DNA of 64,000 nt, taken from assembly GCA_951406725.2 (NCBI GenBank), contig OX597820.1:24986001-25050000 (forward strand), in the 5' to 3' direction. The position numbers and the translations under genes were made by a program. Each line of letters begins with the position of its first letter. Position 1 is the first letter of the stretch. The stretch is from Octopus vulgaris (taxonomy: Eukaryota). Below the pieces are notes generated by a model. It was given only the letters and a program-made list of their open reading frames with translations. It searched no databases and was not told the origin of the DNA. This document shows, piece by piece, positions 10,261 through 41,964 of the stretch.

Positions 10261-11970
10261 TCGACGAACAGGGGAGAAGCACTACAATACAAAGACGTAC
10301 CACGTGGCAGTACGACGACAAGCGACGACAAAAAAATGAAAATGAAAATTTTGTTACACAAGTGTTATTGGCTGATACGTACTGAATTCTATCAAACAAG
10401 CAATAATCCATGAGGAGCGCACAGAGCAGCAAAAATCCAAGCATAACGTATCTATTCATTCTTAATATGTTCTCGCAGATTCGGACGTGAATGTCTCAGC
10501 ATTGTTGCTTATTTGTCATCAGTTGTTTACATACTCTTTTTTCTCTTTTACTTGTTTCAGTCAAGCAAATCGACCCCGGGACTTATTCTTTGTAAGTCTC
10601 TTTTGCCGAACCGCTAATTGACGGGGACGTAAACACACCAACATCGGTTGTCAAGCAATGCTAGGGGGACAAACACAGACACACAAACATATACACATAT
10701 ACGACAGGCTTCTTTCAGTTTCCGTCTACCAAATCCACTCACAAGGCATTGGTCGGCCCGGGACTATAGCAGAAGACACTTGCCCAAGATGCCACGCAGT
10801 CGGACTGAACCCGGAACTACCACAGCCACTCCTGCGCCTGTTGAATACGATATGCGTATCTATACTGAATACAGAGAATCTTATCGCTGACTTGAGATAT
10901 GACCAGACAGTCAGTCAACGCGTTGTCAGTTCGTTTCATGTTACCATTATTGTGTTGTATAAGTGACAATACACTTAAATTCCAACACCCTTGCTCACTT
11001 AACTGCGTGATCATCTACAAATAAAGAAATAAATTAAAATTTTCTAACGTAGATTTATTTCCCTTAACATGTGATAAGAGTTATTTCCCTTGGCATATAA
11101 ATAAGAGTTACGTCCCTTGATCTACTTTTTGCACTTGCACGATATTTCTTTTAACGTCGTAAAAATAATAATATCTACGTCCATACCTATATAGATTCTC
11201 GCAGGTTCATCTTTAAGAGGTGGAGGTCTGTGTATTATAGTGTTGGAGGGAGAAGTCACCAAAATAAACATCTAGAAAATAAATGAAGTACTGATTGAAC
11301 TCTCTGTACAGTTATTTGATCATTTAGAAATAATCTGTGGTCTATAAAAACTCTGGATGGTCTCGGTTGGAATCCCTTTCGTTAGTTGAGTGATCTGGGG
11401 CTAAACACCATTTACTCATACACGTGCTTTCTTGTTTACTCATTTTCAAGAGCTGAGTGGATTGGAGCAACATGAAATAAAGTGTCTTGCTCAAGGACAC
11501 TACGCACCACTGGAAATCGAACTCACAACCATTACAATCATGAGCCAAGTATCCAAAACTCCAAGCCATACACTTTCACTGTAACTTTAAATGGTACATA
11601 AACACCATGTTAACTGGACAAATTGCAATTTCACAAAATATACAAAAATATGAAGATTTAACCAATTCAAATAATGAGAAGCAAATAAGACAATATTGAC
11701 ATATATAAATTTATTGAGATCTTACAAGAACAAAGAAAAATGAAAATCCACCAATTGGTTTTGTCACAAAATTGTGCACTTCATTGATTTCGTTATAAAA
11801 TTTTACAGAGACAATATACAAATCATTTCAAAACTTAAAATTCGTTTCATATTCTGGCACAAGGCCAGCAAGTTTGTGGGAGGAGATAAGTCGATTATAT
11901 TGACCTCAGTGCTTTGAGTGTTGTACAGTGACTATATCACATATTTATGATACAGTCACAAACCTTTACA

Positions 11971-14455
11971 ATATTGTTAGTTAAATGATACAGCTGACTT
12001 CATTCTTGTGATGGAGACCCTTCTAAAGAATCACACACTATTCCATGCAAAAGCTACTTTCATATTTCAAATTTGGTTTTTCCTTTATAATATTTGGCGT
12101 TAGGAAGGGCATCCGGCTGTAGAAACCTTGCCAGATCAGATCAGGGGCCTGGTACAGCCTTCCGGCTTGCAGTCCTCAGTCGAACTGTCAAACCCATGCC
12201 AGCATAGAAAGAAGACGTTAAACAATGATGACAACGACGACGATAATGATGATGAAATTGCTAACATTACACTAACTCTGCTTACAGTAGCATTTTATTT
12301 TCAGACAACATTTCAGATGAAATGATATCCAGAATGAGCTGTAATGAATATCAATAAGCTAAATACTAAAATAAATTCTTACTCCTATTTATTAATATAA
12401 TTATTATATTTTATCATATTCTCAATATCTTTCTCTGAGTTTCTACTGCACCACCAGATGCACTTGTGTCTTATTGAAGTGCATACAACATTGTCTTTTG
12501 AGGTTTTAGAATTGTGACTTATTGGCATCATCATTATCTAATGTCCACTTTCTATGCTGGCATGGATGGAACGGTTTGAGAGGGAACCAGAGACTTGTGT
12601 TGAGCTACAGTGTCACCATTGACATGATTTCTACTTAATGGGTTTGTTAGGTTCCCTCAGATGTTACTTTAGTTGTTCACCTATTTGTTGTGTAGAATAT
12701 GTGCCTTGGGAGTTGTGTGGTACCTGTATCACATATTTGTGTTGTGTGAGTTATGTTGAGCATTGGGTGTTGTCACGATTGTGCAGAATATGTGACTGTG
12801 TAGTTCGTTATATTACTGGAAGGCACATGTTTAGAATACAAGATGCAAGGGTGTACGCAATGGTATGTGAGGTGGGTTATAATACTGATATTATAATAAT
12901 CAGTATTGTATAACCAAAGATTGTTATTTTGGGTTGTTTTTTTTTGGGGGGGGGGGGCAATATGTAATGGGCAAAAGATATTTTAATTCGTCCACAAGCT
13001 GCATGGCAATAAATTTAGGTCCATATGTGAAGAAATATTGATTTCAAAGTTCTACATTGCAAATATGAACAAGGCATTGTAAGGCACATATGTCAACCAT
13101 TTCAAACAAGCAAAAGGAAGTCAATATTATTTTTTATAAAAAAAGACCGAAGCCTCACAGCAGAAAATATATTTCACAACACCAATTCAGTTTCCCTCAA
13201 AAGTTGAGATCTTGTAATATCCGTCATCAGAGATATATAAGGACTGATGGGCTATTGTGGCTACACACTAGTTGGTTTTCTTCTTTAGTTCATTATCCAG
13301 TTCTTTCATGAGGCGTAAGGCAAGCTCATCCTTAGCTGTTGGAGCAGCAATCTGGATATTGATTGGAAGTCCAACACTGTTTGGAAGTGACTGCAAAGAA
13401 ACAAGACATATATATTTAAAATTGTCAGAGTAGGTGTCATGGAAGAATCGCTGTCAGCAAAGTTTAAGATGACTCAGACTACAAAGCCATGAATTTAAAC
13501 TCCACCACATTCTTTGTCAAGATATGTTGTTTTTATTTCCTTATAGAAAGTAAATAATCATTATATAATGTGATTGTGCAAATACATTAGGCCAATTAAG
13601 ATTATATTATTTCCCCATCTTTAGAACACACATCGATTTCAGATTTTGGCACAAGACCAGCAACTTCGGGGAAGGAGTAAGTTGATTACATCAACCCCAG
13701 TACTCAACTGGTACTTATTTCATCAACCCGGAAAAGATGATAGGCAAAGTCAACCTCAATGGAATTTGAACTCAGAACGTAAAGACAGACAAAATGCCAC
13801 TAAGCATTTTTCCCAACATGCTAACAATTCTACCAGCTCACCGCCTTCTTTAGAACATATATTGGCAATATTAATAACTTTGCTGTATTTTGATCTGTTC
13901 ATCATTGAGTGATCAGTGATATCATATGACTATGATATCATATTGTTGTGTGATTAAAGAATTGGTTTCCCATCCCTGTGATTTCAGGTTTGAAACTATT
14001 TGCATAATATGGCAACTTGGCAAGTGTCTTCTGCCATTGCCTTGTGTTTTCTGATGCCTTTTAAATGAAACTCAATATACAAAACTTTGTTTTTGCTTTA
14101 TAAATTACTACCCCCACCTACCCATCTGTCACTCACCTCTTATACTCTTATGAAATTATGTATCCTTTCCCCCTCCCATGATCCATTGTCCATGTTCTCT
14201 CTTACTCTCACCTTCTTGTACCTTAAGAATATACTCTGGCACCTTGTCCCCATCATCTTTATGTTTTCCAGCTACTCCTACCCATCATTATATTATATGG
14301 GGGTAACCATATATCTCCTCTATAGCAAAATACCCATGTTTCTCCTGCTATCATATGCTGGCCTTCAACACCAGGCAGAAAGCCACCTCCCCACCTCTCT
14401 TTCAAATACACTCCCACTCGGTCAAGGGGTTGGGGGTTCTCTCCTTTTTCTTTTT
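11971..14455. repeat. Segmental duplication copy B (last intron end + exon 18b + 3' UTR)
   Basis: Colinear with 16043-19010; for example 12971-13125 vs 17621-17775 differ at 10 of 155 positions. Confidence 0.95.
13268..13390 (-). CDS. FAAH: FAAH alternative terminal exon 18b ([40 protein letters not shown])
   Basis: Identical acceptor context tttctttgcag|, open frame, TAG at 13268-13270; duplicated copy of 18a. Confidence 0.8.
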   Translation of the reverse strand, partial: SLPNSVGLPINIQIAAPTAKDELALRLMKELDNELKKKTN

Positions 14456-17400
14456 TTTATTTTGTCCAGCAAGTTTCAGGGAGGAGATAAGTCAATTACA
14501 TTGACCCTGGTGTTCCAACTGGCACTTACTTTAAAGGATGATAGACAAAGTCAACTTTGGCAGAATTTAAGCTCAGCTAAGCATTTTGCCCAGCACCCTA
14601 ACAGTTCTGCCAGCTTGCTGCTCTCATTTAAAAGGTAATATTAATACATTTTCAATTAATTCTTGTCGGGATTTAAAAAGAGAAATCAAAATTATAAAAC
14701 AAAGCAAAAATGATATACTTGAATGATAATTGACAAAGATAAAGGATTTTATGTTATTTTTGAAATTTTCCTGGATTATGCTCTCTCTGTAATCTCTTCA
14801 ATTACTTCTGTCCAAACTGGGCTCCTAAACACCACAACTTCACTGCTCTGTTCATTGACCACTTCAGTTATCTTCTGTTTTTTTGCTTGCTTCAGTCATT
14901 TGGCTGCAGTCATACTGGAGCACTATCTAAAAAAGTTGTCAAGCAAATCTATCTCTGTACTTGTTTTTAAATTTGGCACACATTCTATTGCCCTCTTTTA
15001 CTGAATGATTTAATTTGGTATTGATCTAAATTTAAGAAACCTAAGAAAAAATATCCCTCTCCGGCTGTTTCCCTGTTGTGAATTAAATGTTGCAAGCAGA
15101 TCATTCAAAGTGGTCTAGAATGTAGACCTTTCTTAAACCTTAAGTTAATACACAGTGAAAGTCATAAGCAGTAATGTCTTAAGCCATGAGCACTCTGAGC
15201 AGTTGCACTGAGTCCTCACAGGTATAGGGACCCAATTCTAATGTATGTATGCTGCAGCTTTCTGTCAATGAATACATAACTATAGGGCCCAGTGCAGCCC
15301 TGGTCATAGGTACTCTACTGTTGAGCAATGGATATGTTAACAATAAACCAATCTTGTTTAAAACAGGAATGCATTTAGCTGGTTAAATAAATCTATTAAT
15401 TTTTACAGAGTAAAAATTACACAGGACTCAGCTTTTAGTACAACATTCTTGTTGACTGTTTTGTCACTGTCAAAATAAATGTTAACTTATAAATTTGTGG
15501 TCATGTGACACCCAAAGCATAAACATCCTTATCTGTGATGGTCTATGCTAATAGGGATTAGCAGAGGTGTGATCTGAAAACGTATATATAGAAAGAAATG
15601 CAATGATCTTTTGTAGATATTATCTACAACAGCATGGTTGCAACAGATCTTTTATCTTTCTCTCAATCTCTCTATCATTTTTGAGAGTCATTTTGAATAA
15701 AAGAAGCTTCCCTTTCCATTACTCTCCCCTCAGAATCAAATATGTGTCTAACAATATTTCTTAATGAAATAAATATGGAAATGAAATAATATTAATAAAC
15801 TAATAGACACTATTTATAATACATGAGAAGATGCCATGGTAAGCTGCCTGAAGTAATGTATGAATGGTATAGTCACCCAGCTAGCTACAGATAAAACTGG
15901 TCTCAGATTAGAACTTATATTGTGTGATACCATTAATTAAACTGTAATTGATATTTAAGATAGATCTCATACTTAACATTCTTTTCTTACATGGGGATAA
16001 TTAGCTTGCATTATCTTCAAGTACAATTTGTGAATTTTTATAATATTGCTAGCTAAATGATACAGCTGACTTCATTCTTGTGATGGAGAAATTCTTTAAG
16101 AATCACACACTACTCTGTGCAAATGCTACTTTCATATTTCAAATTTGGTTTTTGCTTTATAAATTACTAACATTACACTAACCCTGCTTACAGTAGCATT
16201 TTATTTTCGGACAACATTTCAGACAAAATGATGTAATAATAGCCAGAATGAACTGTAATCATCATCATCATCGTTTAACATCCGCTTTCCATGCTAGCAT
16301 GGGTTCGACGATTTTGACTGAGGGCTGGCAAACCAGGTGGCTGCACCAGGCTCCAATCTTATACTGGCAGAGTTTCTACAGCTGGATGCCCTTCCTAACG
16401 CCAACCACTCCGAGAGTGTAGTGGGTGCTTTTTATGTGCCACCGGCACGGGGGCCACTCAGGTGGTACTGGCAATGACCATACTCAAATCTTTTTATACA
16501 TGCCACCAGCACAGATGCCAGTAAGGTGACGTTGGTAACGATCACGCTCGAATGGTGCCCTTTTACGTGCCACAGCACGGGGGCCAGTCAGGTGGTACTG
16601 GCAATGACCTCACTCGAATCTTAATGAATATCAATAAGCTAAATCCTAAAATAAATTCTTACTCGTATTTATTAATATAATTATTATATTTTAACATATT
16701 CTCAACATCTTTCTCGGAGTTTCTACTGCACCACCAGATGCACTTGTATATTACTGAAGTGCATACAACATTGTCTTTTGAGGTTTTAGAATTGAGATTA
16801 TCTAATGTCCACTTTCCATGCTAGCATGGATGGAATGGTTTGAGAGGGAACCAGAGACTTGCAGGGCTGTGTCAAGCTCCAGTGTCACCTTTTGTATAAT
16901 TTCTACTAAACGGGTTTAAGTTCCTTCACATGTTACTTTACCTATTCATCTGTTTGTTGTGTAGAATATGTGCCTTGGGAGTTGTGTGGTAACTGTATCA
17001 CATATTTGTGTTGTTTGAGTTGTGCTATGTGGCCATACCACATACTTGTGTTGTGTGAGTTGTGTTATGTGCTTTGGGTGTTGTGTGTTGACTGTACCAC
17101 ATATTTGTGTTGTGTGAGCTGTGTTATGTGCTTTGGGTGTTGTGTGGTGATCGTACCACATACTTGTGTTGTGTGAGTTATGTTATATGCTTTGGGTGTT
17201 GTGTGGTGACCATATCACATATTTGTGTTGTGTGAGTTGTGTTATGTGCTTTGGGTGTTGTGTGGTGACTGTACCACATATTTGTATTGTGTGAGCCGTG
17301 TTGTGTGTTTTTGGTGTTGTGTAGTGACCGTACCACATGTGTTGTGTGAGTTGTGTTATGTGCTTTGGGTGTTGCGTGTTGACTGTACCACATACTTGTG

Positions 17401-20400
17401 TTGTGCGAGTTCTGTTATATGTTTTAATGTCAGGTGTTGATTGTGCAGAATATATGGCTGTGTAGTTCATGTTATATTATTGGGAGGCACATGCATCAGA
17501 ATATGAGATGAATGATATGTAAGCAATGGTGTGTGAGGTGGGCAATAATACTGATATTATAATAATCAGTATTGTATAACCAAAGATTGTTATTTTGGTG
17601 TTTTTTGCAATATGTTATGAGCAAAAGATATTTTAATTCACCCACAAGCTGCATGGCAATAAATTTAGGTCCATATGTGAAGAAATAGTGATTTTAAAGT
17701 TCTACTTTGCAAATATGAACAAGGCATTGTAAGGCACATATTTCAACTATTTTAAACAAACAATAGGAAGTCAATGTTTTTATTTTATATAGAAAAGACC
17801 AACGCCCCACAGCAGAATAAATATTTCACAGCACCAATTCACTTTTCCTCAAAAGTTGAGATCTTGTGATATTTGTGATCACAGATGTCTAAGGCTTGAT
17901 GTACTATCGTGGCTACACACTAGTTGATATCACCTTTAGTTCACTATCTATTTCTTTCACGACGCGTAAGACAAGCTCATCCTTATATATAGGTGCAACG
18001 ACTTGGATATTGACTGGAAGTCCAACACTGCCTGGAATTGACTGCAAAGAAACAAGACATATATATTTGGAATTGCCAAAGGATGTTATGAAAGAATCGT
18101 TGTCAGCAAAGTTTAAGATGACTCAGACCACAGACTACAAAGTCATGAATTTAAACTTCACTACATTCTTTGTCATGATATGTTGTTGTTCTTAGTTCCT
18201 TATAGAAAGTAAATAATCATTATTTAATGTGATTGTGCAAATACATTAGGCAAATTAAGATTATATTATTTCCCCATCTTTAGAACATACATCGATTTCA
18301 AATTTTGGTACAAGGCCAGCAACGTTGGGGGAGGGGTAAGTTGATTATTTCATCAATCCGGAAAGGATGATAGGCAAAGTCAACCTCAATGGAATTTGAA
18401 CTCAGGATGTAAAGACAAGCAAAATACCATTAAGATTTTTCCCAACATGCTAACAATTCTACCAGCTCACCACCTTCTTTAGAACATATAATGGCAATAT
18501 TAATAACTGTGCTGTATTTTGATCTGTTCATCATTGAATGATCAGACAAATCAAAATACCATGTAAAATATAAATATGGTAAATATCTACAAAAAATAGG
18601 TTTCTTGCTTAACATATGACTAATACAATATCAGATATTGTTGTATGATTAAAAAATCAGTTTCTGATCCCTGTAGTTTCAGGTTTGAACCTACTTGCAT
18701 AATATGGCAACTTGGCAAGTGTCTTCTGCCATCGCCTTGTGTTTTCTGATGCCTTTTAAATGAAACTCAATATACAAAACTTTGTGAAAGACTACCTACC
18801 CATCTGTCACTCTCCTCTCATACTCTTATGAAATTATGCATCCTTTCCTTCTCCCATGATCCATTGTCCATGAATCTCCTCTATAGTAAGACACCTACAC
18901 TTCTCCCTCTATCATCCGCTAGTCTTCAACACCAGACAGAAAGCCACCTCTCCCGTCTCTCAAATACACACCAACTCAGTCAAGTGGGGTTTTCTCTCCA
19001 TTTTCTTTCTTTACTTTGTCTAGCAAGTTACCTGATGCCCTAACAAGTTTCTGTGTCATGGAGAAAGCACCCAGTACACATTGTAAAATGTAAGTATTGT
19101 TTTTAAATAAATATATAAATGTACATTAAATAAAGAATAGATTAACAGCGTAAGAGGGGCTGTGTGGTAAGTAGCTTGCTTACGGACCACATGGTTCCGG
19201 GTTCAGTCCCACTGCATGGCACCTTGGGCAAGTGTCTTCTACTATAGCCTCGGGCCAACCAAAGCCTTGTGAGTGGATTTGGTAGACGGAAACTGAAAAA
19301 AGCCCATCGTATATATGCATATATGTATGTGTGTGTGTATGTTTGTGTGTCTGTGTTTGTCCCACCAACATCGCTTGACAACCAATGCTGGTATTTACGT
19401 CCCTGTAACTTAGTGGTTCGGCAAAAGAGACCGATAGAATAAGTACTAGGCTTACAAAGAATAAGTCCTGGTGTCGATTTGCTCAACTAAAGGTGGTGCT
19501 CCAGCATGGTCACAGTCAAATGACTGAAACAAGTAAAAGAGTAAAAGAGTAACACATGAAGACTAAAATGTAATGTTTATGAAACTGTTCAAATCTAAAT
19601 ATATTTGCAAACTTACATGTGTGTGTGCATACATGCATGTGTGCGTGCATACCCATGCATGCATTTGTACTTGTATCAGCAAAGATATACAAGTTGGTAT
19701 ATGTCTTTCGCTAATACATGTTATGTGCCTTGGAAGTTGTGTGGTAACTGTATCACATATTTGTGTTGTGTGAGTTGTGTTATGTGCTTTGGGTGTTGTG
19801 TGGTGACCGTATCACATATTTGTGTTGTGTGAGTTGTGTTATGTGCTTTGGGTGTTGTGTGGTGACCGTATCACATATTTGTATTGTGTGAGTTGTGTTA
19901 TGTGCTTTGGGTGTTGTGTGGTGACTGTACCACATACTTGTGTTGTGTGAGTTGTGTTATATGCTTTAGGTGTTGTGTGATGACTGTATCACATATGTGT
20001 GTTGTGTGAGTTCTGTTATGTGTTTTAATGTCAGGTGTTGATTGTGCAGAATATGTGACTGTGCAGTTCATGTTATATTATTGGGAGGCACATGCATAGA
20101 ATATGAGATGAATGAGAATATGCATGGAGGAACATGCATACAGTATGAAATGAATGAGATGAATCACATGATTAAAAATGCAGTGAACCTGTGACTGGCC
20201 TATCAGAGGCTGATAAACATCAGTGCTGTGGTTCAACAAAATAAATGATATAAAACAAAAGTGGTAAAAAGAAGTATATAACTTACGCCTTTCAAACAGA
20301 ACTCAGGCAGTGTTCTGGCATTGTATTTCTCGTTCACATCTTCTTCTGATACCTTGGTAATGGGCATAGACACAACAGGGTAATTCAACAGATTGTAGAG

Positions 20401-21166
20401 AAGAGGGTAAGAGGGAAATCCTGTCAAGAAAATAACAGAGAGAGAGAAATTATAGTTGTTGCTGCTGCTGCTTTGTTTGTTTGTTTGTTGAGTGTCTCAG
20501 GACTGTCTGCAGTCCGAAACGTGGTCCTTTGCTATTCGTAAGACCCGCAAAAGAGAAAGCAGGTTAACCCCCCGACACTGAGAGCATCGACAGATGGATG
20601 AATGCGCATCCAGGCTCAGCGGTTGCGTAGGAAGTTGGGGACAAGAAACAGGAAGGAAGAGTGAAAGAAAGTTGGAGCGAAAGAGTACAACAGGGGTCGC
20701 CACCACCCGCTGCTGGAGCCTCATGGAGCTTTAGGTGTTTTCACTCAATAAACACACACAACGCCCAGTCTGGGAATCGAAACCACGATCCTCCGACCAC
20801 GAGTCCGCTGCCCTAACCACTGGGCCATTGCACCTCCTGCTGTTGCTGTGGTTGTTGTTTTATCCAGGGGTCAATCCTTATCAAGTAGCTCTATGACCAA
20901 AGACATATCTTTTGGTTTTATCTTTTCTTTTGATTGTTTCAGTTATTAGACTGCAGCCATGCTGCAGCACCCCTTGAAGAGTTTTTAGCTGAATGAACTG
21001 ATTCCAGTACTTACGGTTTTTTTCCCCCTTTTTGTCTTTTGTTCTTTAAAGCCTAGAACTTATTCTATCAGGTTCCTTTGTCAAACTGCTAAGTTACAGA
21101 GACATAAACACACCAACACTAGTTATTTGTCCCCAACCCAGTGGTTGGGGACAAATACAGACACAT

Positions 21167-21289: not shown

Positions 21290-23906
21290 TATACATATAA
21301 CAGGCTTCTTTCAATTTCTGTCTACCAGATCTACTCACAAAGCTTTGGTTAGCCCAAGGCGATAGCAGAAGACATTTGCCCAAAGTGCCACGCAGTGGGA
21401 CTGAACCCTGAACCCTGAATTATGTGGTTTGGCAACAAACTTTTTACCACACACTCATGCCTGGGCCATAATTATCACATTTTTGTTTTGTTTCCTCCAC
21501 AATCATGATTCCAGGTTCAGTCCCACTGCATGACACCTTGGGTAAGTATCTTCTACTAAAGCTCCAGGTCAACCAAAGCCTTGTCAGTAGATTTGGTACA
21601 TGGAAACTGAAAGAAGCCCATCATTTATCTGTATGTGTATGTGCGTCAGTATACGTACATATGTGTGTGTATGCATATGCATATGTGAGTGTGTGTGCAT
21701 ACACACTATTGCGTGTGCATGCACACACTAGTGTGTGTGTGCGTGTATCTCTGTGAGTGTGTTTGTATTAATCTCCATCACCACTTGACAACTAAGTGGT
21801 TTGGCAAAAGAGACTGATAGAAAAAGGCACCATACTTTGAAAAATAAATATTGGAGACCAATTTGTACTACTAAAACCCCTCAAGGTGGTGCCCCAGCAA
21901 AGCCACAGTCCAATGATTGAAACAAGTAAACGATAAAAGATTACATTCTTAGTTCAGAAGAATTATTATTATTTTTTTTTTTTTTTTTGAAATGTTCAAT
22001 TCAGATTGATTTAAAGTAATAAGGACTTACTTCCAAAGTTTGGACAGCTTAACAAAAATGATGGTGAAGCCATGACAGGGCAGATGAGAGCATCCAGGTT
22101 ATCCTTTTGCATAGCGTTAGCAAATTCCTCGTTATATTTCTGAAACGTAAGAGAAGAGCCAACAATAGCTAGTGATTCTAACCTGCATGTTTTTGAGTTT
22201 AATTTGGCTATATCTGGCCAAGATATTCTTCCTGCAAACCATACTATATAAAAGAAATTACATAGAACTACTTTAAATGTACATGTGGAGCTCTGAGGGT
22301 TGGCCATTAATACATGGGCAATAACCACCCTCTCGCAACAAATGGCAGAAATTTGAATTTTAAATTAAGGACTTTAAGGAAGAAGATGCATAGAATTCAT
22401 GTATTTTATTATTTTTTTTATCTATTATGAAGTTCTTACAATTTCTAGTTGCTAATAGTCATGTATAGTATTATTTCATTCTTTTCAGAATTCTTCAGTA
22501 TGATTTGACCTGTAACTTGTTAATTATATATATTATGAAGAGAGACATTTCATTAAAATTAAAAATGAAATTAATTACAGTTTGGAGGAAATTCATGGAA
22601 TGTAGTTTTTTTTCTTGTCATTTTTTAACTTCATAGATTGTTGGTAGTTTAAGAATTGAGAGAAATAGGATATTTGTAGTAAGCAAATCTCAACTGTCAA
22701 AGCATGAACTCTTTCAATGCTGCAACTAGTAGCAGCACTTATAAAAAATGAAATGCAATTTCTACAATTCATATAGAAACAAAAGCACTCAGAGAGCACA
22801 AACCTCCACCAAGGCAACACCAATGTCCTCTCAACGATTAGCCGGAGATGATTTTAAAATGAGAATATCTGAAATAAACTCAACTGCTCTCACAAACAAG
22901 AACACTAAAAATGGACCGAACTGCTCACAAAAATTAAGTAAAAAAACTGAAAAAATAATCCCGAATCCTTGTTCGGTACTGGATCAATCCCAAAATCTAA
23001 TCAGAGTTTGTGCCAGTCATGAAGCCAAACATCCCTGAAAGTTTCATCAGAATCCATCCACCGGTTCTTGAGACATCCTGTCTACGAACAAACAAACAAA
23101 CACAACTGAAAACAATACCTCCACCTTTGCTAAGTCAGAGGTAATAAAGGAATTTCAACTTACTGTATTTTAACGAGTAGGAACCCTTTTTTGTCAAAAA
23201 TTAGGTTTAAAAAATATGGAAGTTTCTTATACATGGGTAGTATCATAATCCCTTACAAAGCCTTTTTTCCAAATTTTAAGCCCCAAAAATTAGGGGGTTT
23301 CTTATACACGTTACAATATGGTATCTATTTTTACAATAATATTTTTCTAGACAAAATGAGTCTTTCAACTATGACATAGTTAGAAAAGTTAACTAGAACT
23401 ATTTCAGCTATATATAAACCAAAAGAAGAATATGTTAAAGTGACTCACTTCTTTCTCATTGACCAAGTTATATATATCACGATAATTCCTGGAATTAAAA
23501 ACAGGGAGAAAATATTGAAATATTTTATTACTACCAAGCTTAAATTTGTCAAAGAAAACAATTCTATACAGTGAATACAGTAAGCTCTCTACATCCAACA
23601 CCACCGGGACCAGAGTATTGCTGAATAACTGAATTTTCTGGATATCTGATCATCACTTTTTTATATTGCCATAGTACCTTACAAAGTTCTATATACACAT
23701 CATAATGTGTCTAATTAATAAGTCCCAGGTCAAATCATGATGAAAATTTTTGACAGGTGTAGCAGTGTGGTAAGTAGCTTGCTTCCCAACCACATGGTTC
23801 CAGGTTCAGTCTTATTGAGTGGTGCCATGGACAAGAATCTTTTACTATAGCCTCAGGCTGACCAAAGCCTTGTGAGTGGATTTAGTAGACAGAAACTGAA
23901 AGAAGC

Positions 23907-23955
<49 letters not shown>

Positions 23956-26070
23956 GTGTGTGTGTGTGTCTGTGTTTGCCCCACCATCATTGTTTGACAA
24001 CTGATGTTGGTGTATTTACATCCTCGCAACTTAACGGTTCAGCAAAAGAGACCAATAGAATAAGTACCAGGCTTACAAAGAATAAGTCCTGAGGCCCAAT
24101 TCTGCAACTAAAACCACTTTAAGGTGGTGCTCCAGCATGGCCGCAGTCAAATGACTGAAACGAGCAACAGAATAACATCCTTGTTATCAGTAATATCCTA
24201 AACATAGCAGAGAAATAGTAAAGGAAAGGTTTTATTAATCCTTTAGCATTGAGATTTCTGTGTCAAATGTAATGCTTATTTATTCACATGACTGGCATCC
24301 ATGCTAGTGGAGTGCTAAGAGCACCATCCGAGCGTGATCATTGCCAGAGTGGATAACTGGCTTCCATGCCAGTGGCACGTAAAAAGCACCATTCTAACGT
24401 GATCGTTACCAGCGTCGCCTTACTGGCACTTGTGCCGGTAGCATGTAAAAAAACATTCAAGCAAGGTCATTGCCAGTGCCGCTGGACTGGCTCCTGTGCA
24501 GGTGGCACATAAAAAGCACCATTTGAGCGTGGCCGTTGCCAGTACCACCTGACTGGCCCTTGTGCTGGTGGCACGTAAAAGCATGGAAAACGGACATTAA
24601 ACGATGATGATGATGATGATGAAACAATCACATCATTGAAATCTTAAAACTACAAGGTAATGCTTGACTAATTCAAATTAATCATCATCATCATGCTAGC
24701 ATGGGTTGGACGATTTGACTGAGGAGTGGCGAACCAGATGGCTGCACCAGGCTCCAATCTTGATCTGGCAGAGTTTCTACAGCTGGATGCCCTTCTTAAC
24801 ACCAACCACTCCGAGAGTGTAGTGAATGCTTTTACATGCCTCCAGCATGAGGCCCAGTCAGGTGGTACTGGCAATGGCCATGAAAAAATCGTGTTTTTTA
24901 TTTTTTTACGTGTCACCTGCAAACCGGCACAAGTGCCAGTAAGGCATTGTAAAATAATATTGTAAGGGATGTATGAGAAGCTGGATCTGCCCAGTTTGAA
25001 GATAAAACCAGGAGATTATTTTGGCTGGATATGGCTAGTTAAAATATGAGAATGTTAGCCTAATAAAGTACAGATGCAAATACAGTAAAATACAATACTG
25101 TAACAGTAGAAATTTTCTTTTTAAGAAAATTAATTAATTAAAACAAATTAGCACAATTTTTTTTTTTTTTTTTGTCTGAGTGCCTGTTACTTGAGAGTTT
25201 CAATTATTTGAGTAGCAGATAAGAGGGAGTGTACTGTATAAAAATGAGTGAAAAAAGGAAAATACAGACTATGAAATAGACAGATAGAAAATTAAAAAAG
25301 CAAGTGGAGAGAGAAAAAAACAAAACTAGTTCACACTCACTGCAATCCATCCATTGTACGAATAAGCCGAGACGATGTTTTGTCCTACAAAATAGTGGAA
25401 ATAATTTGAAGAAATATAGAAAAAAACGAAAAGTAATAATTAGGAGAGAAATTAGTTTTTTAATGAACAATTTGTTTCAAATTCATATAATTTACATTCT
25501 TTTATTCTTTTACTTGTTTCAGTCATTTGACTGCGGCCATGCTGGAGCACCATCTTAAAGGGTTTTTAGTCGAAGCAGTCAACCCCCAAGACTTATTCTT
25601 TGTAAGCCTAGTACTTATTCTATTGGTCTCTTTTGCCAAACCACTAAGTTACAGAGACATAAACACACCAGTTGTCAGGCAATGGTGGCGGGGTCAAACC
25701 CACCAGCATGGAAAACGTATGTTAAAGGCTGGTGGCGGTGGTGGGTGAGGATGGTGATGATGATAAGGATGATGATGATGATGATGATGATGCACATAGT
25801 GTAGAATTAAATACACACTAGGGATCTTTATTTCCAAACTAAGTGTAACAATGTACTTATTCAGTAGAGCACTTACAATAAGAGAAGAAACCAATGGAAA
25901 TATAGTGTAGATATAAACACTAAATGTTTCATTATTTACATTCGACGGATATTTGTCCTCATCTTGTTTGTTGTTAACACAACATTTCAGCTGATATACC
26001 CTCCAGCCTTCTTCAGGTGTTTTGGGGAAATTTCGAACCTGTATTCTCATTCCTAAGGTATTTTTCGATG

Positions 26071-26102
<32 letters not shown>

Positions 26103-27085
26103 GTTGTTATTGTTCAGGTCACTGCTTGGAATCGAACTTGGAATCTTGGGGTTAGTAGCCTGTGCTCTTAACCACTACGTCATATGTCCTACTAACCCCA
26201 AGATTCTGAGTTCGATTCCAGGCAGTGACCTGAATAATAATAATAACAACATCGAAAAATACCTTAGGAATGAGAAACCAGGTCCAAAATTTCCCCAAGA
26301 CACCTGATGAAGGTGGAGGGTATATCAGCCGAAACGTGTTAAAAACAAACAAGATGAGGACAAATATCCATCGAATGTAAATAATGTAAATAATTTACAT
26401 AATTCCTCATCTCTTAAATATAGAACTGTATTAGCTAAATGTTTCTTTATATTATCCTATGTAGCCATCTGGATTTTTTTATCTTAATAGAATTGTGTAA
26501 TTTGATGAAGATTTATCATCTATTTCTAGCACATAAAGTGACAACTTAGGGGTTTCCTTTCAGCAAGCTATGGTTCAATTTAGTTAAAGCTTGAAATCTT
26601 CACCAATAGATCAGCAGCTTAATTGGTAAAATCACAGCATTTCTGCTTCGTGGACATAAATTCTACTAAGTATTTATATATGTGTGTGTTTGTGTGTCAG
26701 TGTTTGTCCCCCCCAACATTGCTTGATTACCGACGTGGGTGTGTTTACGTCCCCGTAACTTAGCGGTTCGGCAAAATAGACCGATAGAATAAGTATTATG
26801 CTTACAAAGAATAAGTCTTGGGGTTGATTTGCTTGACTAGAGGTGGTGCTCCCGCATGGCCACAGTCAAATGACTGAAACAAGTAAAAGAGTAAAAAGAG
26901 AGAGTATATATATATATATATATATATATGGGTGCTGGCATGGCTGTGTGGTTTACTTTGTAACCATGTGGTTTGGGGTTCAGTCCCACAGCACAACACC
27001 TTGGGCTATATCTCTGGGCTGACCAATCCTTTGTGAGTAAATTTGGTAGATGGAAATTATGTGGAGGCTCATCATATATGCATGC

Positions 27086-27146
<61 letters not shown>

Positions 27147-28683
27147 AGTGTCATTGCTTGTGTTTGTCCCTCCATTGCATAGCTTGAAAATTTGTGCTGG
27201 TTTGTTTACATCACTGTAACTTGGTAGTTTGACAAAAAAAAAAAGACTGATAGAATAAATACCAAACATAAAGAACAAGTACTGGGGTCAACGAGTTTGA
27301 TTAAACCCTTGAAGGCAGTGCCCCAGCATGGCCACAGCCCAATGACTCAAGCAAAAAATAAAAGATAAAAAATATGGTAGAAAAATATTTAGTATAAATA
27401 TATTTATTTCATTATTGCCTACCGGGGGCTAAACATAGAGGGGACAAACAAGGACAGAAAAAAGAATTAAGTCGATTACATCGACCCCAGTGTGTAACTG
27501 ATACTTGTTTAATTGACCCTGAAAGGATGAAAGGCAAAGTTGTCCTCAGCAGAATTTGAACTCAGAACATAACAGCAGACGAAATACCATTAGTATTTCC
27601 CCCGGCGTGCTAACAATTCTACTAGCTCACCGCCTTTTATTAAGATATTAGTATTAAGATATTACTTACAAAAGGGTAAGCAAACAATGAAAGAATTCTG
27701 TTAAAACCTTCACAGGTTCTTGCTAAGAACATCTCTTTACATGGTTTCTCATGTTTTCTGAAGAAAAAAAAGCAAGAAAGAGAGAAATATATAATATTAT
27801 ATAGTACAGTTTTAAAATACAACTTACAAACTGGTTAGTTTTTCACTTTACTTTTATCAAACAGAAACTGAAAGAATGTCTTAAACAAGGATGCAGGTAA
27901 GGCCACAGCACTGTGAAGCTAACTTACCTACAGCAAATACCATTTACCAAAACATTAAGGTGACCAATGATTTCTGAGTGAAGCTTGGTAGTCAGAAAAT
28001 GTGCAGAAGTCATGTGTGCACGTATGTACACAGATACACACATGATCATCATCATCACCACCACCACCACCACCATCATCTTTTAAGGTTTCATACTAGC
28101 ATGGGTTGGAAGTTTTGGCAGGATCCACTGGATTCAGAGACTGCACCGTGCTCTAGTATCTACTTCAACATAGCTTCTATGGCTGGATGCTTTTCCTAAT
28201 GCCATCCACCCTATAGAATGTTCCGAGTGCTTTTCACATGCCACCAACACTGGTGAGGTCGCCAAGCATTCTGCAAGACTGTGAACCCAAAAGAAGCAAG
28301 CAACTTTACACTGGAAGATGAGGTATCAATGTATGAGAGAAGGGACCAGAACAATACAAATTTAGTTGCTGCTGATATAGAAATGCAGCAACTGAAAAAA
28401 ATCACTGATGTCGCAGTTAGTCATCAGATTTAAATCTGTCTTAACAAGTGGATACAGCTACTGATGATGCTCAAAGGAGGAGAAATACGTATCTAGCAAA
28501 AGCACACCCAATTCTTGATGATTTTCATCTACTACTGATATATTTGTGTGTTTTCTTTAACAATATATATGTTTATAAAAGATGCTTGCTTGGGATGAAT
28601 ACTGCAGTTTTCAGGTTTTGAACAGTATATCTGTTTTAAGTATTATATACAGATTGCTATTTTGCTGCTTCTGTCAGTAACGA

Positions 28684-28724
<41 letters not shown>

Positions 28725-31700
28725 TACACTCACGGAGTGGTTGGCGTTAGGAAGGGCATCCAGCCGTAGAAACACTGCCAGATTTGACTGGGCCTGATGA
28801 AGCCTTCTGGCTTCACAGACCCCAGTAGAACCGTCCAACCCATGCTAACATGGAAAACGGACGCTAAACGATGATGATGATGATGATGATATATATATAC
28901 ACACACAATTATGTGCTTTTTCTACAGTATTACAGCATTTTAGCTCTTATTTCTAGCAATATAGGTACTCTGACACCCTTGATCACTTTTAGTGACAATT
29001 ATATTTTTCCTTTATAGTAACACATTGCACATGGCTTTTTATATTAATATATACATATATGTATATGTATACATTTACATGTCTATGTATATCCACACAC
29101 ACACACACAAATACACCGATGTAAGTGAAAAGACATGAATAAAATTGAAAAGCAAAAAGGGAAATTTTCCTATTTAGTCATCATGACTACCAGATTCATT
29201 ATGATATTGGCTTATACTGGTGATTGTAAGCAATTACTATGGTTAAAGACAGAACATTTTATGAAGTCTTATGGGTTGACACACAAAGCAAAGTTTCTTG
29301 GGACAACAGCAAAAGAGATGAGAAAAAATAAGAGTTTTGTGGCCTGATATAAAAGCAATAATATCTTTTAACAAAGAATGAAACAAAGATGAAGTTTGTA
29401 CTGGGGAAAACAGAAATGAAGACTTGGAGCAAAATAACACTGGAGATAAAGTGAGACATGAAGTTAGTGAGAAGTTAGAGAGAAGAAAGGCTGGCAGAGA
29501 AGTGTGTTGAAAAAAAACCAGGAGCAACAGTAAAGTGCTAATGTAGGAGTGGGGGGGGAGAGAGGAAGTGAGTGTGTGTGAGATAGAAAGAGAGAAAACA
29601 TAATAGAGAGGGAAATAAAAGTTTAAATCACCATAGATGGGAAAATCCGTTAAGGTAAACAAAAAGTAGACTTTCTGTTTGGATTATAAATAATTGTAAA
29701 AGAAAAGATTTGGAAAATAATGAAAAGACAAACAAAAATAAAACATGGAAGTACCCCTCATTAACTGCAGATACCAGATTCATGATAGTTTCAACCCTAA
29801 ACCTGGAACTACTTGTCTGGCAAATATGAGTGACTGTAAACAATCCATAGAGAGAAAGAGAACATTTAACAATGTCTTATAATTAATTAAACACTCAAAA
29901 GATATTCTTTCTCAACAAGCTACAAAGTAGTGATATACTGCACTTAATGAAAACACATTCGGATTAATTCAATACTACTGGATTTCTCTTAAGAAGTTAT
30001 CTTTTATGCAAGAAATTAAACTGTTAGCCATTTCTAAAAACCAAGCCAAATCAAACTGGAACCTGGTGCAGCTCTCCGGCTTGCCAGCATGGTGGAGGGA
30101 CGTTAAAGGATGATGATGATGGTAATGATGATGATTCTCTCATACTTTTACCCATCTTTTTCCTCTCATAGTCTTGTAAACTGTAAAATGGCATCACTGG
30201 TGCTGGTGGCACAAAAAAACACATCTGCCACATGCTGTAAAGTGGTTGGCAGTGGGAAGGCCATTCTGTTGTAGAAACCATGCCAAAGTAAACATTGGAG
30301 CATGATGCAGCACTTGGGGCCCCATTAGATACTGTCAAACTATCCAAACCATGCAACCATGAAACATTAATGTTTAAATGTTGATGATGAAGATGATGAT
30401 GACAATGTCAGCGGTGGTGGAAATGACGGCAACAGCGACAGTGGCAGTGACAGCAATGGTAACAACAACAATGATGACAATGATGATTTGATATATGTGT
30501 AGCAGTCTGATGATGGTGCATGGCTCAGTGGTTAGAGCATCAGGCCCACAATCATGAGGTAGTGAGTTCAATTCCTAGATTGGGCTGTGTGTTGTGTTCT
30601 TGAGCAAGACACTTTATTTCACATTACACCTCTTTACTCAGCTGTATAAATGAGTTGCAATGTCACTGGTGCTAAGTTGTATCAGCCTTTGCCTTTCCCT
30701 TGGTCAACATCAGTGGCACGGAGAGGGAAGACTGGTATGCATGGGTGACAGCTGGTCTTCCACAAAACTACCGTACCCAGATTTGTGCCCCGGAGGGGAG
30801 CTTTCTTGGTGCAATCTCATAGTCATTCATGACCGAAGGGGGTCTTTACCTTTTTAAGCAATTCGATGTCTAATGCACTATACTACAGATACATCCCCGA
30901 TATTAATCATATATTTTGTAATTTAACAGTGTAAAAGCCGCATGTTCAATTCAAGCATTTGAAAGTATTTCTGAACATCAACCATTATCATTAATTTTGA
31001 TATTATTCATTTTTCGTTTTGGGATTTGGTTTGCAAGGTTCTTTATATGAGTTCGTGTGTTGAAGCATATTCTGTTGTGTCTGGGGAGAGTCATTTTCTT
31101 TTTGTGCCTTATAATGTAACACACTCACCGGTAAAATTTCCACTTTTTTTCTTATTTTTATTTTCCTAAAATTTTCGTTGCGTCTTGCAACCTTTTCAAT
31201 AGTTTTTGACTCAATAGTCTTGATATTATTCAATTCTTTAATTAATTTGAAAAACATGTAGAAGCCCACCATGGAAGTAAATTCATTCTTGTAACATGTG
31301 CGACAGAACTGCTCAGAATAAATATTTGACCAAAATACGTGTAATGGTGAAGTCAAAATCAACCCCAAGCTTATATTGAATCTGAACCAACCATAGTCTT
31401 CAGAATTCTAAAAAAAATGTCATGTCTGCCTCTAAGGACAATACAATGTTTTTAGTTTTTACTAGGAGGAGTGCAAAGAGATTGTGTGAACTTCCAGGAA
31501 GCAAGGTAGATAGCGTGCAAGTGTATTTCTGTGTATGTATGTATGGTTACATGTGTATGTGTGTTAGTGTGTATTACATTAATTATACTAATTCTTTAAT
31601 TATATTAATTACTAGCAGTATCGCCCGGCGTTGCTCGGGTTTGTAAGGGAAATAACTATATAAGCATTTTTAGAGAGTTATAGCCAAAAAATAGCAAAAA

Positions 31701-34700
31701 AATGCATTAAAAATGGAAAAAAAATGATGGTAAATTCTTTTTAAATCGTCGACTCATCGTAGACATTTTTAGAGAGTTATTTCCCTTAGCGAAAAAAATG
31801 CATTAAAATGGAAAAAATGATGGTAAATTATTTTTTAAATCGTAGACTCATCGTAGACGCGCGCTAATACCCAGAAGGGCTCGATATGAATCACAACTAT
31901 AAGATACCCGCTTTTGGTTACACTGCACCGCAAAATGTGGGAGTAGTTAGGAATCTAAATCGTAGGAGACAGACACACAACCTCTCTTTTATATATAAAG
32001 ATTACTGAAAATAACCCTCACTAGTTTCCTTATATTCTGTATTTTACTCTATACCAATCATGGGTAAACTGAGTCAGTCAGAAAGTTCCATGGGCCACAT
32101 ACAGCCCACAAGACTTTCTTTCTGAATGGCATGCCAATGAAAATTTACTTTGGATTTTTTAGTAGTGCAGCCTAACGATGAGCCATGTCTTACGCAACTC
32201 ATTTCTTGAAAAAGATTGCCCATGCCTGGTCTAAACAATACTTACATTATTCTTCTCAAGACGTGGCCATCAGACCACAATATATGCATTGTTATACAGA
32301 GAGCATCCAAGATTCTAGGAGGAGTAAATTCAACGACCTGTAAATCAAATGAAACAGCAACATTTATCAGTGATGGATGCTTCATTGCAAGAACAAATAA
32401 GAGAGAACTCAATTGTCTCTGGATGTTTGAAAATTGAAGGGAAACATAGAAGATGATGGACATGGAAGATCCTTAGTGAAAAGAGATGGGAAATCAGAAA
32501 TGTTCAGAAATTGAGCATCGTCCAAATGTGTTGCATGCAACCAATAGAACCCACGTGGAAGTGTTCCAATATTACTAATAAAACTTTATTTCTTTGCCTA
32601 TGTTTTCCAATTAACCCTGCTAAGTTATCCTCATTTTCCATTTCTTTTTGATATTTTTCAAATTGTAAAGGTAATTTATGGACATGCTGTATTATATTTC
32701 TACAAGAAGAAAATCAAAGTCAACTCCATAGCAATGATCCAGAATGTTAGGGAATGAAATTAAATACTGTATGGCCTTTGGCTGTACTTTATCATTTATG
32801 CAACTCTAACAACTTCTTTACGGTACTAATAATAATTGTTTCTAATTTTGGAACAAGGCCTGAAATTTGTGGTGGGAGGCAGGCAGTTGATTACATTGAC
32901 TCCAATGCTCATTTTATTAACCCTGAAAGGATGAAAGGCAAAGTTGAACTTTCAACACAAAATGTAAAAAAAAAAAAAAAAAAAAAAAAAATGAAATGCT
33001 GAGAAGAATTGTGTCCAGCATGCTAAATGATTCTGCTACCTCACTGCACCACCACTATCACCACCACCACGACCAACCACCACCACCACTACTACTACTA
33101 ATAATAATAATAATCCTTCCTATTACAGGCACAAGGCCTGAAATTTTGGGGAAGGGGACTGGTTGATTACATTGACCCTAGTGCTTGACTAGTACTTATT
33201 TTATCAACCCCGAAAGGATGAAAGGCAAAGTCAACCCCAACAGAATTTGAACTTAGAACATCAAGACAGCTGAAATACCTATTTCTTCACTACCCACCAG
33301 GGGCTAAACATAGAGTGGACAAACAAGGACAAAGGGATTAAGTCAAGTACATCGAACCCAGTACATAACTGGTACTTAATTTATCGACCCCGAAAGGATG
33401 AAAGGCAAATTCGACCTCGGCGGAAATTGAACTCACACCGTAACGGCAGACGAAATACTGCTAAGCATTTCACCAGGTGTGCTAATGATTCTGTCAGCTT
33501 GCTAGCTTGGGCATGGCTGTGTGGTTAGGGAGCTTGCTTCCTAGCTACATGGTTTCGGGTTCAGTCCCACTGCATGGCACTTTGGGTAGGTGTCTTCCAC
33601 TATAGCCCCGAGCCGACCGGAGCTTTGTGATTGAATTCGGTAGGTGGAAGTTACTGCCGTGTGTGTATGTGTGCATATAGCTGCTCAGTGCCTCTCCGAA
33701 AGAGAGAAAGGGAAATAATAATAGTAATAATAATGATAATGATGATGATGAATCCAACAAGCCAGGCATTGTTACCAAGGACAGAAGAACAGGATATGTA
33801 TATTTATTGACATTGCAATACCTTTCAAGAGACACCTTCAAGAAAATTACAGAGAAGCTGATTATGTACAATGGCCAGGAAATCAAACTCAACAAGATGA
33901 AGAAGATGAAAACTGAAACAATGCCAGTGGTCACTGGAACACTAAAACTCATTAAGCAGGAGATGGAAAAGGTCATCAATTGCATCCGAGGCAACATCAA
34001 TATTTATGTAGTCCAGCAGATTGTGCTACTTGGAATGGTGCATTGCGGTCAGTCAAGTGACATCAGGCCCATCGTTTGGACCTAGCTCAATAGGGTATAG
34101 TAAATAGAAAGAATAAACAATGGTTGTTTCTAATAAAGGCACAAAGCATGAAATCTTGAAAGGAGAAGTTGCCAAGCTAATTAGATGGCAGGCTAAGTGG
34201 GATTTGAACTCAGAACTTGAAGACCTGAAAGAAACAACACATGGCATTTTGTCTCATGCTTTAGTAATTCTGCAAGAGCAGCAACAGCAACAACAACATT
34301 AACATTCTTACCGTATGGCCTCTGGCTTCCAAAGCTTTCTTTGCTAAAAGAACTGCTCGCTGGCAGGCAGGAGTGGCATGAACTACATTATCAGTCACAT
34401 AATATCCAATCCGCAGTTTTCTTGTATCTTCAAACAGCTGGAAAGTATCAAGAAAAATTAATTCATTATTAGTATAAGAAATCATTACAGAAAACTACAT
34501 TAGCTCAGCAGTGTTTTTATTATTATTATTATCTTGAATTGGCAAGATCATCATCATCATCATCGTTTAACGTCCGCTTTCCATGCTAGCATGGGTTGGA
34601 CGATTTGACTGAGGTCTGGCAAACCAGATGGCTGCACCAGACTTCAATCTGATCTGGCAGAGTTTCTACAGCTGGATGCCCTTCCTAACGCCAACCACTC

Positions 34701-36484
34701 TGAGAGTGTAGTGGGTGCTTTTACGTGCCACCAGCACGAGGGCCAGTCAGGCGGTACTGGCAATGGCCACGCTCAAATGGTGCTTTTTATGTACCACCCG
34801 CACAGGAGCCAGTCCAGCGGCTCTGGCAATGACCTCGCTTGAGTGTTTTTTCACGTGCCACCAGCACAAGTGCTAGTAAGGCGACACAGGTAACGATCAT
34901 ACTCGAATGGTGTTTTTAACGTGCTATTGGCACGGAGGCCAGCTTGTTGTTCTGGCAACGATCTCACTCATATCGCACTCTTAGTTCATGAAGCCCCCAG
35001 TAAGAAAAGATATGTTTGCAAAACTGTCTTATAAATTTATTTAGGTAAATTACTTTTAGTTTTTGTTTCTTGTCAGTTTTTTCCCCTGAAATTTGGATGA
35101 CATATTCTGATATTCCTTTTAGAATTCATCCAAAGAGTGGTGAATGTTAATTATGTATAATTTTCATTGTTTAGTAACCAAAACAAAAAGAAACAATTCA
35201 ACATAAAACAACGGCACTCAGATAGGGCAAACCTCCACCAAAACAACACCAATGTCCTCTCAGTGATTAGCTGGAGATGATTTTTAAAATGAGAATATCT
35301 GAAATATACTTGACTGCTCTCACAAATGAGAATACTAAAAATGAACCCAACTGCTTCCAAAAATTAAGAATCCTTGTCCAGTACAGGATCATGCCCAAAA
35401 TCTAATCAGTTCATACCAGCCACGAGGCCAAACATCCCTGAAAGTTCCATCTGAATCCATCCAGTGGTTCTTGAGATATCTTGTCCACGGATAAACAAAG
35501 AAACAAACAAACAAGACTAAAAACAATACCTCCACCTTTGCTAAGACGGAGGTAATAAATGGTGATGAAGTAAGCCACTAAAACATGCAAAAACCATGAA
35601 ATTAGAATGAAAATCATACAGAAATAAAAAAGGTGAAAAAAAAATAGTATTTGAGAAAATACTAGCATTTTGAAAATGAAATAAACCCTTTATGTGTCAG
35701 TAATATTGCTCTCTACTGATAATAACTCTTTCAAAGAATGTATGTCAGTAATATTGATGGCAGTTTCTTTATGTCTGAAGATCCTGTGGAAGTGCAGCAT
35801 GCCCACAAGTAGCTATATAAACCGATCTTTGATGCTGCAGGACTTTTCTTCCTATCTGCACTTAGTATTTTTATAGCGTGAGTCAGTCCACACTATCCAA
35901 TCCCACTTGACAGAGTTGGAGGATAGACCACAGTGACTCAGCAAGCTAAGACAGCTGCCGTGACCAGCAAACTGTAGGTTTTACACTGCAATGGCCTTCT
36001 CCTAGGTGAACTGCCTTACAGGGTTGGAAATCTCCAACAAGCCTATTGTCAGTGATATTAATGACTTAATTAAACGAGTGAAGGTGCATGGTTTAGTGGT
36101 TAAAGTATTCAGCACATGATTGTATGTTCGTGAGTTCAATTCCTGGCGACATGTGTCTTTGAGCAAGACACTTTATTTCATGTAACTTCAGTCCACTCAG
36201 CTAGCAAAACTAAGTAGAATTGAGTAGTACCCGCATTTCAAAGGGCCAGTCTTATCACACTTTGTCTCATGCTGAATCTCCCTGAGAACTATGTTAAAGG
36301 TACACATATAGGCATAGGAGTGGCTGTGTGGTAAGTAACTTGCTTATCAAGCACTTGGTTCCAGGTTTAGTCCCACTGCATGACACCTTGGGCTAATGTC
36401 TTCTACTATAGCCTCAGGCCGACCAAAGCCTTGTGAGCAGATTTGGTAGACAGAAACTGAAAGAAGCCCGTCGTATATATATAC

Positions 36485-36526
<42 letters not shown>

Positions 36527-38522: not shown

Positions 38523-38555
<33 letters not shown>

Positions 38556-40736: not shown

Positions 40737-40774
<38 letters not shown>

Positions 40775-41259
40775 AATTAAAAATAGCAAAACAACAAAAG
40801 TCAAAAGGACATACACATGGAATGTGTTAGCTTGACATTCAGTATAAGAGGGCAAAACAGAGTGGGTGTATGTTTTGATCATGGTTCTTCATCAGAAAGA
40901 GGAGAGAGAAAAGGTTCAGTGAAAGAAAAAAAAGTCCAAGAAAAGCATGTGTGGCTACATATATACATACATTCATACACATACGTGTGTATGTGTGTGC
41001 GCACATTTGTCTCTTTATCTTTTTCTTTTATATTTCATTTGTCATTGGATTGTGGCCATACTGGTGCACTGTCCTGAAGGATTTAACCAAACAAATCAAT
41101 CCCAGTACTTATTGATTTCTATTGGTCTCTTTTGCCAAACTGCTAAGTTAAGGAATGTACACAAACCAACATTGGTTGTTAAGCAGTGAAAGGAGAAATG
41201 CAAAGACAGAAGCACACACACACACACACACATACACACACGCACATGCACACACATAC

Positions 41260-41290
<31 letters not shown>

Positions 41291-41964
41291 ACAGGATTCC
41301 ACAGAATTTTATCAACCAATTTCACTCATATTCACAAGGCACTTGTCAGCCAGGGGCTGCAGTAGAAGATACCTGCCCAAGGTGCCACGCAATGGGATTG
41401 AACCCAAAACAACATAGTAGCAATCCACAGCCATGCCTATGCCAAAAAAAAAAAAACATTTTATAAACTTACCCAAAACGATTAACCGTTGTTTTGAATC
41501 CAAAAACACCACAAAAATGAGCTGGAGCCCGAATGCTACCACCTAGGTCTGTTCCAATGCCTAAAATCGATCCACCAAAACCAATGAGGGCTGCTTCTCC
41601 TCCACTGGACCCTCCAGGACATCGATCAGCTTTATGTGGGTTAAGAGTTTGTCCATAAATATTATTATCACAGGCAATGCTGAAAAGAAAATATGAAAAT
41701 AAAAAATGTAAAAATAACTAATAAAAATCATTTGGGTTTTTTTTTTTACTTTTGCTCGTTTCATTCATTGGACTGTGGCCATGCTGGGGCACTGCCTTGA
41801 AGGGTTTAGTCGAAGAAATCAACCCTAGTGCTTATTTTTATTTCTAAATCCTGGTACTTATTTCATCATTCCCTTTCATCAAACTGCTAAGTTATGCATG
41901 CCCATGTAAAATGACCAACACTGATTGTGAAGCAGTGGTGGGGAGACAAACACGAACACAAAGG

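Follow-up and report, generated by a model that had tools for sequence, protein, structure and literature searches.

The 64,000-nucleotide stretch of Octopus vulgaris DNA analysed here (assembly GCA_951406725.2, contig OX597820.1, positions 24,986,001 to 25,050,000; hereafter the window, in whose numbering coordinates are given) carries on its minus strand a FAAH1-like gene whose last coding exon has been duplicated in tandem. Both copies, 18a and 18b, are spliced to the same upstream exon ("exon 17") and give the protein one of two C-termini, VISTSV from 18a or KKKTN from 18b. By comparison with related genes, the dilysine end of 18b is ancestral in octopods and the tail of 18a is derived through a deletion of one nucleotide. 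With slightly less than even confidence, we favour the reading that the choice of last exon would decide where the enzyme resides, the ancestral KKKTN isoform being retrieved to the endoplasmic reticulum (ER) by COPI and the VISTSV isoform escaping this retrieval. A preliminary description of this DNA had proposed a switch between the ER and PDZ scaffolds; the splice choice behind that proposal stands and its PDZ half is unsupported, and it had missed both the ancestry of the dilysine end and the divergence of the exon bodies.

The duplication covers a unit of about 4.65 kb that takes in the terminal exon with its acceptor and 3' untranslated region (UTR), as the preliminary description held, the blocks 19029-16037 and 14475-11965 being 79-89% identical. 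Likewise borne out was its account of two intact copies, as the acceptors are identical over their final 27 nt, phase 0 is kept in both, and the 16 shared exons from 53120 followed by either last exon give a stop-free translation. These model translations agree at every residue with their O. sinensis counterparts, XP_029639295.1 (586 aa) and, once its first 6 aa are set aside, XP_029639294.1. The alignment of the two exons contains a single 1-nt gap ahead of the common CAACTAGTGTGTAG, which is consequently read in two frames, again as had been described, and the 18a tail exceeds that of 18b by two residues. No upstream FAAH exon was found between 18041 and 13390 by tblastn with three full-length proteins, in agreement with the earlier statement, and exon 17 matched five places in the genome, namely itself, a retrocopy and three paralogs.

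The splicing of exon 17 to 18a was seen directly in assembled contigs, where the joint 18041-20287, with GT-AG borders when read along the gene, occurred in three of the four runs compared (X3, X9 and X14, from three organisms and three studies) and was not seen in run X1. These four runs were drawn from 24 and none is recorded as RNA, which they are only presumed to be, but an exact GT-AG joint is the trace expected of spliced RNA. Of the two junctions named in the preliminary description, 20287->18041 was thus recovered, while 20287->13390, which joins exon 17 to 18b, was not among the joints listed for the four runs. X3 contig 17 and X1 contig 4 match precisely up to 13390 and then continue for a further 27 and 1682 letters, as that second joint would have it, but this does not demonstrate the joint. 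Run X3 yielded contigs of both exons. Contig depths (18b 60.8 vs 18a 10.3 in X3; 14.1 vs 3.4 in X1; 18a 659.5 in X14) are unfit for ranking the isoforms, and the lack of cover of 18b seen in X9 and X14 is uninformative on its use.

The use of 18b is recorded in the genome itself. On another contig (G000:C1, L003:1436-3215; 210212648 onward) the end of exon 17 (65/65 nt) is joined exactly to 18b, the match continues through 18b and its UTR (1672/1706, 98% identity over 1.7 kb), and the copy ends in a run of 12 A that is absent from the gene, about 16 nt past the AATAAA at 11715. Such a structure marks a processed retrocopy, made from an mRNA in which 18a had been skipped, and implies germline expression of the 18b form. 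The retrocopy also fixes the polyadenylation site of 18b, as against 18a, for which only candidate signals were found. The retrocopy is young and 5'-truncated and abuts a CTAT microsatellite; a target-site duplication around it was looked for and not found, and the genome search returned no 18a-type retrocopy. Among predicted proteins, the O. sinensis RefSeq isoforms X1 and X3 end in ISTSV and isoform X2 in KKKTN, as does the O. vulgaris model CAI9725350.1. Thus the contig joint for 18a, and the retrocopy and annotated isoforms for 18b, establish that exon 17 is spliced to each of the two last exons, as first supposed. Contigs lying on 15008-16216 were considered as 18a UTR and rejected, as they match the UTR of paralog p5.

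The history of the two tails was read from the relatives of the gene, which is one of five tandem FAAH1-like paralogs in mixed orientation at about 25.00-25.31 Mb of contig C7 (L004-L007, L009-L012). The other four end in KKKSN, KKKSN, KKKTN and KKKSG, so the spacing of KKKxx from the stop is constant in all four (4/4), with variation at positions -1 and -2. The same KKKxx end was found in three of four O. bimaculoides paralogs and one of two Argonauta proteins, and because of this distribution the dilysine end is taken as ancestral in octopods and the 18a tail as derived. In simulations at the UTR divergence of the paralogs (27-33%), a dilysine end survived by chance in 7-12%. A tree built from flanking DNA groups 18a and 18b as sisters (support 0.977). 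Paralog p5 aligns collinearly first with the 18a unit and next with the polyadenylation region 11773-11610, which implies that the old site went with 18b. Two tails depart from the dilysine pattern (P0012 and P0017), one being KKGGN in O. bimaculoides and the other a longer ...KSTKSWIFG in Argonauta, possibly an independent frameshift.

The derived tail of 18a appears to be old. The O. bimaculoides protein A0A0L8I126 ends in KMKSTSV and has the derived residues of 18a; since this species, which split off about 34 million years ago (PMC10700109), has the same frameshifted end, the frameshift is likely about 34 million years old or more. After their displacement from the C-terminus the lysines decayed, to KMK in O. 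bimaculoides and KVI here. A0A0L8I126 may be a chimeric model, with its N-half identical to a neighbouring paralog, but its C-half is orthologous. The annotated isoforms P0001, P0009, P0010 and P0126 are mosaics of neighbouring paralogs, N-half from one and C-half from another, and result either from chimeric annotation or from splicing of read-through transcripts across the tandem genes. The proposed check in related cephalopods therefore came out in part, as the 18a-type end is kept in O. bimaculoides and three homolog searches returned no 18b-type protein of that species, the latter being weak evidence. In run X14 (about 90% identical) a contig over 11763-12123 has an arrangement seen only behind 18b among the stretches compared, which suggests that the duplication is older than the split of the X14 organism, an intact 18b there not being implied.

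The shared body of the two isoforms is FAAH1-like. The Amidase domain PF01425 was matched above the cut-off and over its full profile in Pfam at 308 bits in the 18a isoform and 306 bits in the 18b isoform, and rat FAAH matched the octopus protein at E 1e-90 in the homolog search. K163, S239 and S263 are invariant across 108 aligned sequences and align with the rat SLKE, GGSSGG and GSIR motifs; we take them to be the catalytic Ser-Ser-Lys residues. The AlphaFold2 (AF2) model of the 18b isoform, the sole isoform folded, reached a predicted local distance difference test (pLDDT) score of 94.3. Its best Foldseek matches are FAAH (E 3e-48, root-mean-square deviation 2.0), with a TM-score of 0.85-0.86 by query length and 34% identity to the rat and humanised FAAH structures 1mt5, 2wap and 3qk5. 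The N-terminal membrane segment has its hydropathy peak of 1.86 at residues 23-41. The product is likely a fat-messenger-degrading enzyme, the label endocannabinoid hydrolase resting on homology. Anandamide has been recorded in several molluscs, its receptors being described in that source as unidentified (PMC7924210).

The tail KKKTN has lysines at -3, -4 and -5 before a free C-terminus and satisfies both KKxx and KxKxx of the dilysine rule, yeast Wbp1 ending similarly in KKTN (PMC3521961), in agreement with the resemblance noted in the preliminary description. In the mechanism we propose, 18a would be chosen when cleavage occurs at its own proximal polyadenylation site, and exon 17 would be joined to 18b when 18a is passed over in favour of the ancestral distal site. 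Tail and catalytic domain alike would face the cytosol, as FAAH-1 faces the cytoplasm (PMC11065068). The KKKTN tail would then likely bind COPI, by which the enzyme would be returned to the ER, and the frameshifted VISTSV tail would go without COPI retrieval, the switch being one of dilysine on or off. That a KKxx end can work behind an N-terminal anchor and a folded cytosolic domain is reported for Cisd2 (PMC8482578), which the octopus enzyme would resemble in all three respects; Cisd2 and Cisd1 are, however, separate genes and not splice forms, and the case of Cisd1 makes plain that the motif alone is no proof.

Several observations weigh against this reading, the unlisted 18b joint among them. 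Only 10 of 105 non-octopod homologs have a KKxx or KxKxx end, five of these ten being cartilaginous fishes (P0016, P0019 and P0095, truncated or fused, were dropped from the homolog counts), none of three decapod-like sequences has a dilysine end, and one O. bimaculoides paralog has the KKGGN end given above. The enrichment of dilysine ends over shuffles is weak (P 0.17, 0.02 and 0.005 by window of comparison), lysine-rich tails being common. In the cluster, two near-identical UTRs are 3.3% apart and two intron ends 4.8% apart, which suggests gene conversion, and conversion of flanks only 3-5% apart inflates the apparent conservation of KKKxx. In the AF2 model the last helix, 571-589, runs up to residue 589 of 590, and the lysines of 18b may be helical instead of free. 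The tail of 18b may also add little, because Cisd1 is reported to have a KKxx end without COPI binding and the transmembrane segment of Cisd2 alone gives partial ER retention (PMC8482578).

The least improbable of the alternatives, though still an unlikely one, is that the N-terminal anchor holds both isoforms in the same compartment and that the two exons were kept for their enzyme properties or for regulation through the 3' UTR. The first 36 codons of 18a and 18b, which form the final core strand and C-terminal helix in the AF2 model, differ at 12 of 36 residues. They differ at 19/108 nt, against 39/502 in the intron and 57/485 in the UTR, and their nonsynonymous differences (14.5/81.8 sites) exceed those of the flanking intron (39/502; Fisher P 0.012), the comparison with intron and UTR together giving 0.055. 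Polarised on the paralogs, the changes are 10 nonsynonymous and 0 synonymous in 18b and 5 and 5 in 18a (P 0.033, post hoc), and one of those in 18b, Tyr->Ala, replaced a residue that is aromatic in 105/105 non-octopod homologs. Under the favoured reading as well, the isoforms may thus differ as enzymes besides their address, the diverged bodies tuning the enzyme. The UTRs of 18a and 18b also differ in content and probably in polyadenylation site. However, these tests concern one short exon, were made post hoc, include two sites of ambiguous polarity and could be affected by gene conversion of the intron, and a common compartment leaves the fixed KKKxx spacing before the stop in the paralogs unexplained.

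A class I PDZ ligand carries S or T at -2 and ends in a hydrophobic residue (position 0), and VISTSV, with Thr at -2 and Val at 0, fits this pattern. It is improbable, to our judgement, that 18a gained a working ligand of this kind and is anchored on PDZ scaffolds, such as synaptic ones, with 18b staying in the ER. STSV is kept in O. bimaculoides while the two preceding residues differ, and the tail of 18a is the longer of the two. However, the +1 frame of 18b gives TSV and that of paralog p4 gives TSI before a stop, so the motif already lay unread in the stop codon and UTR of the ancestral exon and came with the frameshift. In neutral simulations at 5-10% divergence, STSV with its stop was unchanged in 31-56% and the PDZ motif kept in 54-74%, and its conservation is therefore not beyond chance; an [ST]x[VLI] end was also found in 5 of 105 non-octopod homologs. 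The preliminary claim of a PDZ address is thus unsupported beyond the consensus match, and TSV would be a by-product of the frameshift, with no selection needed. We hold as a shade more improbable the fuller account in which the 1-nt deletion replaced a COPI signal by a functional PDZ ligand concealed in the former stop codon, last-exon choice would move the enzyme between the ER and PDZ-scaffolded membranes, and the core of the ER isoform would have been remodelled by positive selection.

Doubtful to a slightly greater degree is neutral redundancy, in which the duplicate persists without advantage while one copy decays, 18a having lost its tag and 18b a conserved aromatic residue. Nonsynonymous and synonymous differences per site (pN and pS) between the copies are nearly equal (0.177 vs 0.172), 18b has the lowest profile score (39.3 bits) in a set of ten octopod last exons, the others reaching 39.9-50.8 bits, and 18a has replaced a Met present in 101 of 105 homologs. 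Against decay, both frames and acceptors are intact despite 8-12% divergence of the flanks, both exons are spliced, and an 18a-type exon is still present in O. bimaculoides after the split dated above. An assembly artefact through haplotype duplication has a vanishingly small chance of being the explanation, for although a different 1.4-kb tandem repeat elsewhere in the window is 99.8% identical, the copies described here are too diverged for the mis-assembled haplotype that the preliminary description had considered, both isoforms are annotated in O. sinensis and X3 contigs cover both exons.

A dilysine switch by last-exon choice would have several partial counterparts. In the NMDA receptor subunit GluN1, the alternative C-termini C2 and C2' set ER retention against a PDZ-binding end with demonstrated function; there, however, retention depends on an arginine-based signal that the PDZ end masks, and the cassettes are not known to be duplicated exons. 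Duplicated 3' exons with alternative C-termini are an already described class, to which octopus FAAH adds a case: 77 human C-terminal substitutions derived from tandem exon duplication are reported, including plasma-membrane Ca-ATPases and NECTIN2 (PMC8373072). These share with the octopus gene homologous 3' coding exons and two C-termini on one body, and probably the choice between them through alternative polyadenylation, whereas the octopus tails differ through a 1-nt frameshift that displaces the dilysine, are restricted to Octopus and are known here from nucleic acid and predicted proteins. KRAS4A and KRAS4B similarly pair alternative last coding exons and differing membrane-targeting signals with one catalytic domain, but the KRAS4A exon derives from that of a paralog and its targeting, by lipidation and polybasic motifs, was shown experimentally (PMC9882654), whereas the octopus copy is local and its targeting is predicted. 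The octopus gene shares with vertebrate FAAH1 the PF01425 domain, the Ser-Ser-Lys motifs and an N-terminal hydrophobic segment, and differs from it in the five-gene tandem cluster with KKKxx tails and in the two last exons of one gene. A literature search on FAAH in octopus or cephalopods and on KKXX/PDZ splicing, with most subscription journals outside its coverage, returned nothing on the octopus gene or on such a FAAH switch.

The splice switch itself is solid, and a choice of dilysine would enable cells to direct the enzyme to one membrane or another. If the tails work, cephalopods could set where N-acylethanolamine-type lipids are degraded, and the gene would offer a compact natural experiment in which a trafficking signal was lost or swapped by one base. 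The ancestral state, the frameshift and the later decay of the lysines can all be read in living genomes, and the two isoforms of one gene serve as an internal control.

Table 1. Features of the FAAH1-like gene and its duplicated terminal unit (window coordinates)
Feature	Position	Strand	Description
Shared coding exons 1-15 of the model	22031..53120	-	encode a hydrophobic anchor at the N-terminus and the amidase-signature domain
Last shared coding exon ("exon 17", 134 nt)	20287..20420	-	ends in phase 0, donor GTAAGT; splices to 18a or 18b
Last exon 18a, coding part, 42 aa	17913..18041	-	SIPGSV...ELKVISTSV, stop; XP_029639293.1, O. bimaculoides A0A0L8I126, spliced joint in runs X3, X9, X14
Last exon 18b, coding part, 40 aa	13268..13390	-	SLPNSV...ELKKKTN, stop; body evolving fast; XP_029639294.1, CAI9725350.1, retrocopy
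Upstream copy of duplicated unit	14624..19029	-	about 1 kb of intron, 18a, 3' UTR; ends approximate
Downstream copy of duplicated unit	11965..14475	-	intron, 18b, 3' UTR; later deletion and repeat insertion; ends approximate
Proximal 3' UTR of 18a	17545..17784	-	candidate signals AATAAA 17784 and ATTAAA 17637; contig X14/11 reaches 17545
18b polyadenylation signal AATAAA (11715) and cleavage site (~11694)	11694..11715	-	3' end of the retrocopy, with A residues not templated by the gene

Elsewhere in the window, ten further open frames matched no Pfam family. Two open frames without a match lie on the minus strand at about 9600-10400, in a region whose motifs recall a decayed transposase of the mariner type. 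An extra 5' exon encoding MQVV is present twice, at 56263 and 57663, inside the tandem repeat at 55353-58157, whose 1.4-kb unit (99.8% identity) was either duplicated very recently or is an artefact of assembly. The O. vulgaris model CAI9725350.1 has, at 27670-25384 of the window, a segment 9 residues longer than in the O. sinensis isoforms and the present exon model, which is probably a mispredicted exon boundary. A 59-nt minisatellite occurs in intron 17 (19719-20026) and in the 18a UTR (17029-17425), with one unit in the 18b UTR (~12700-12773), and is also found in the UTRs of two paralogs.

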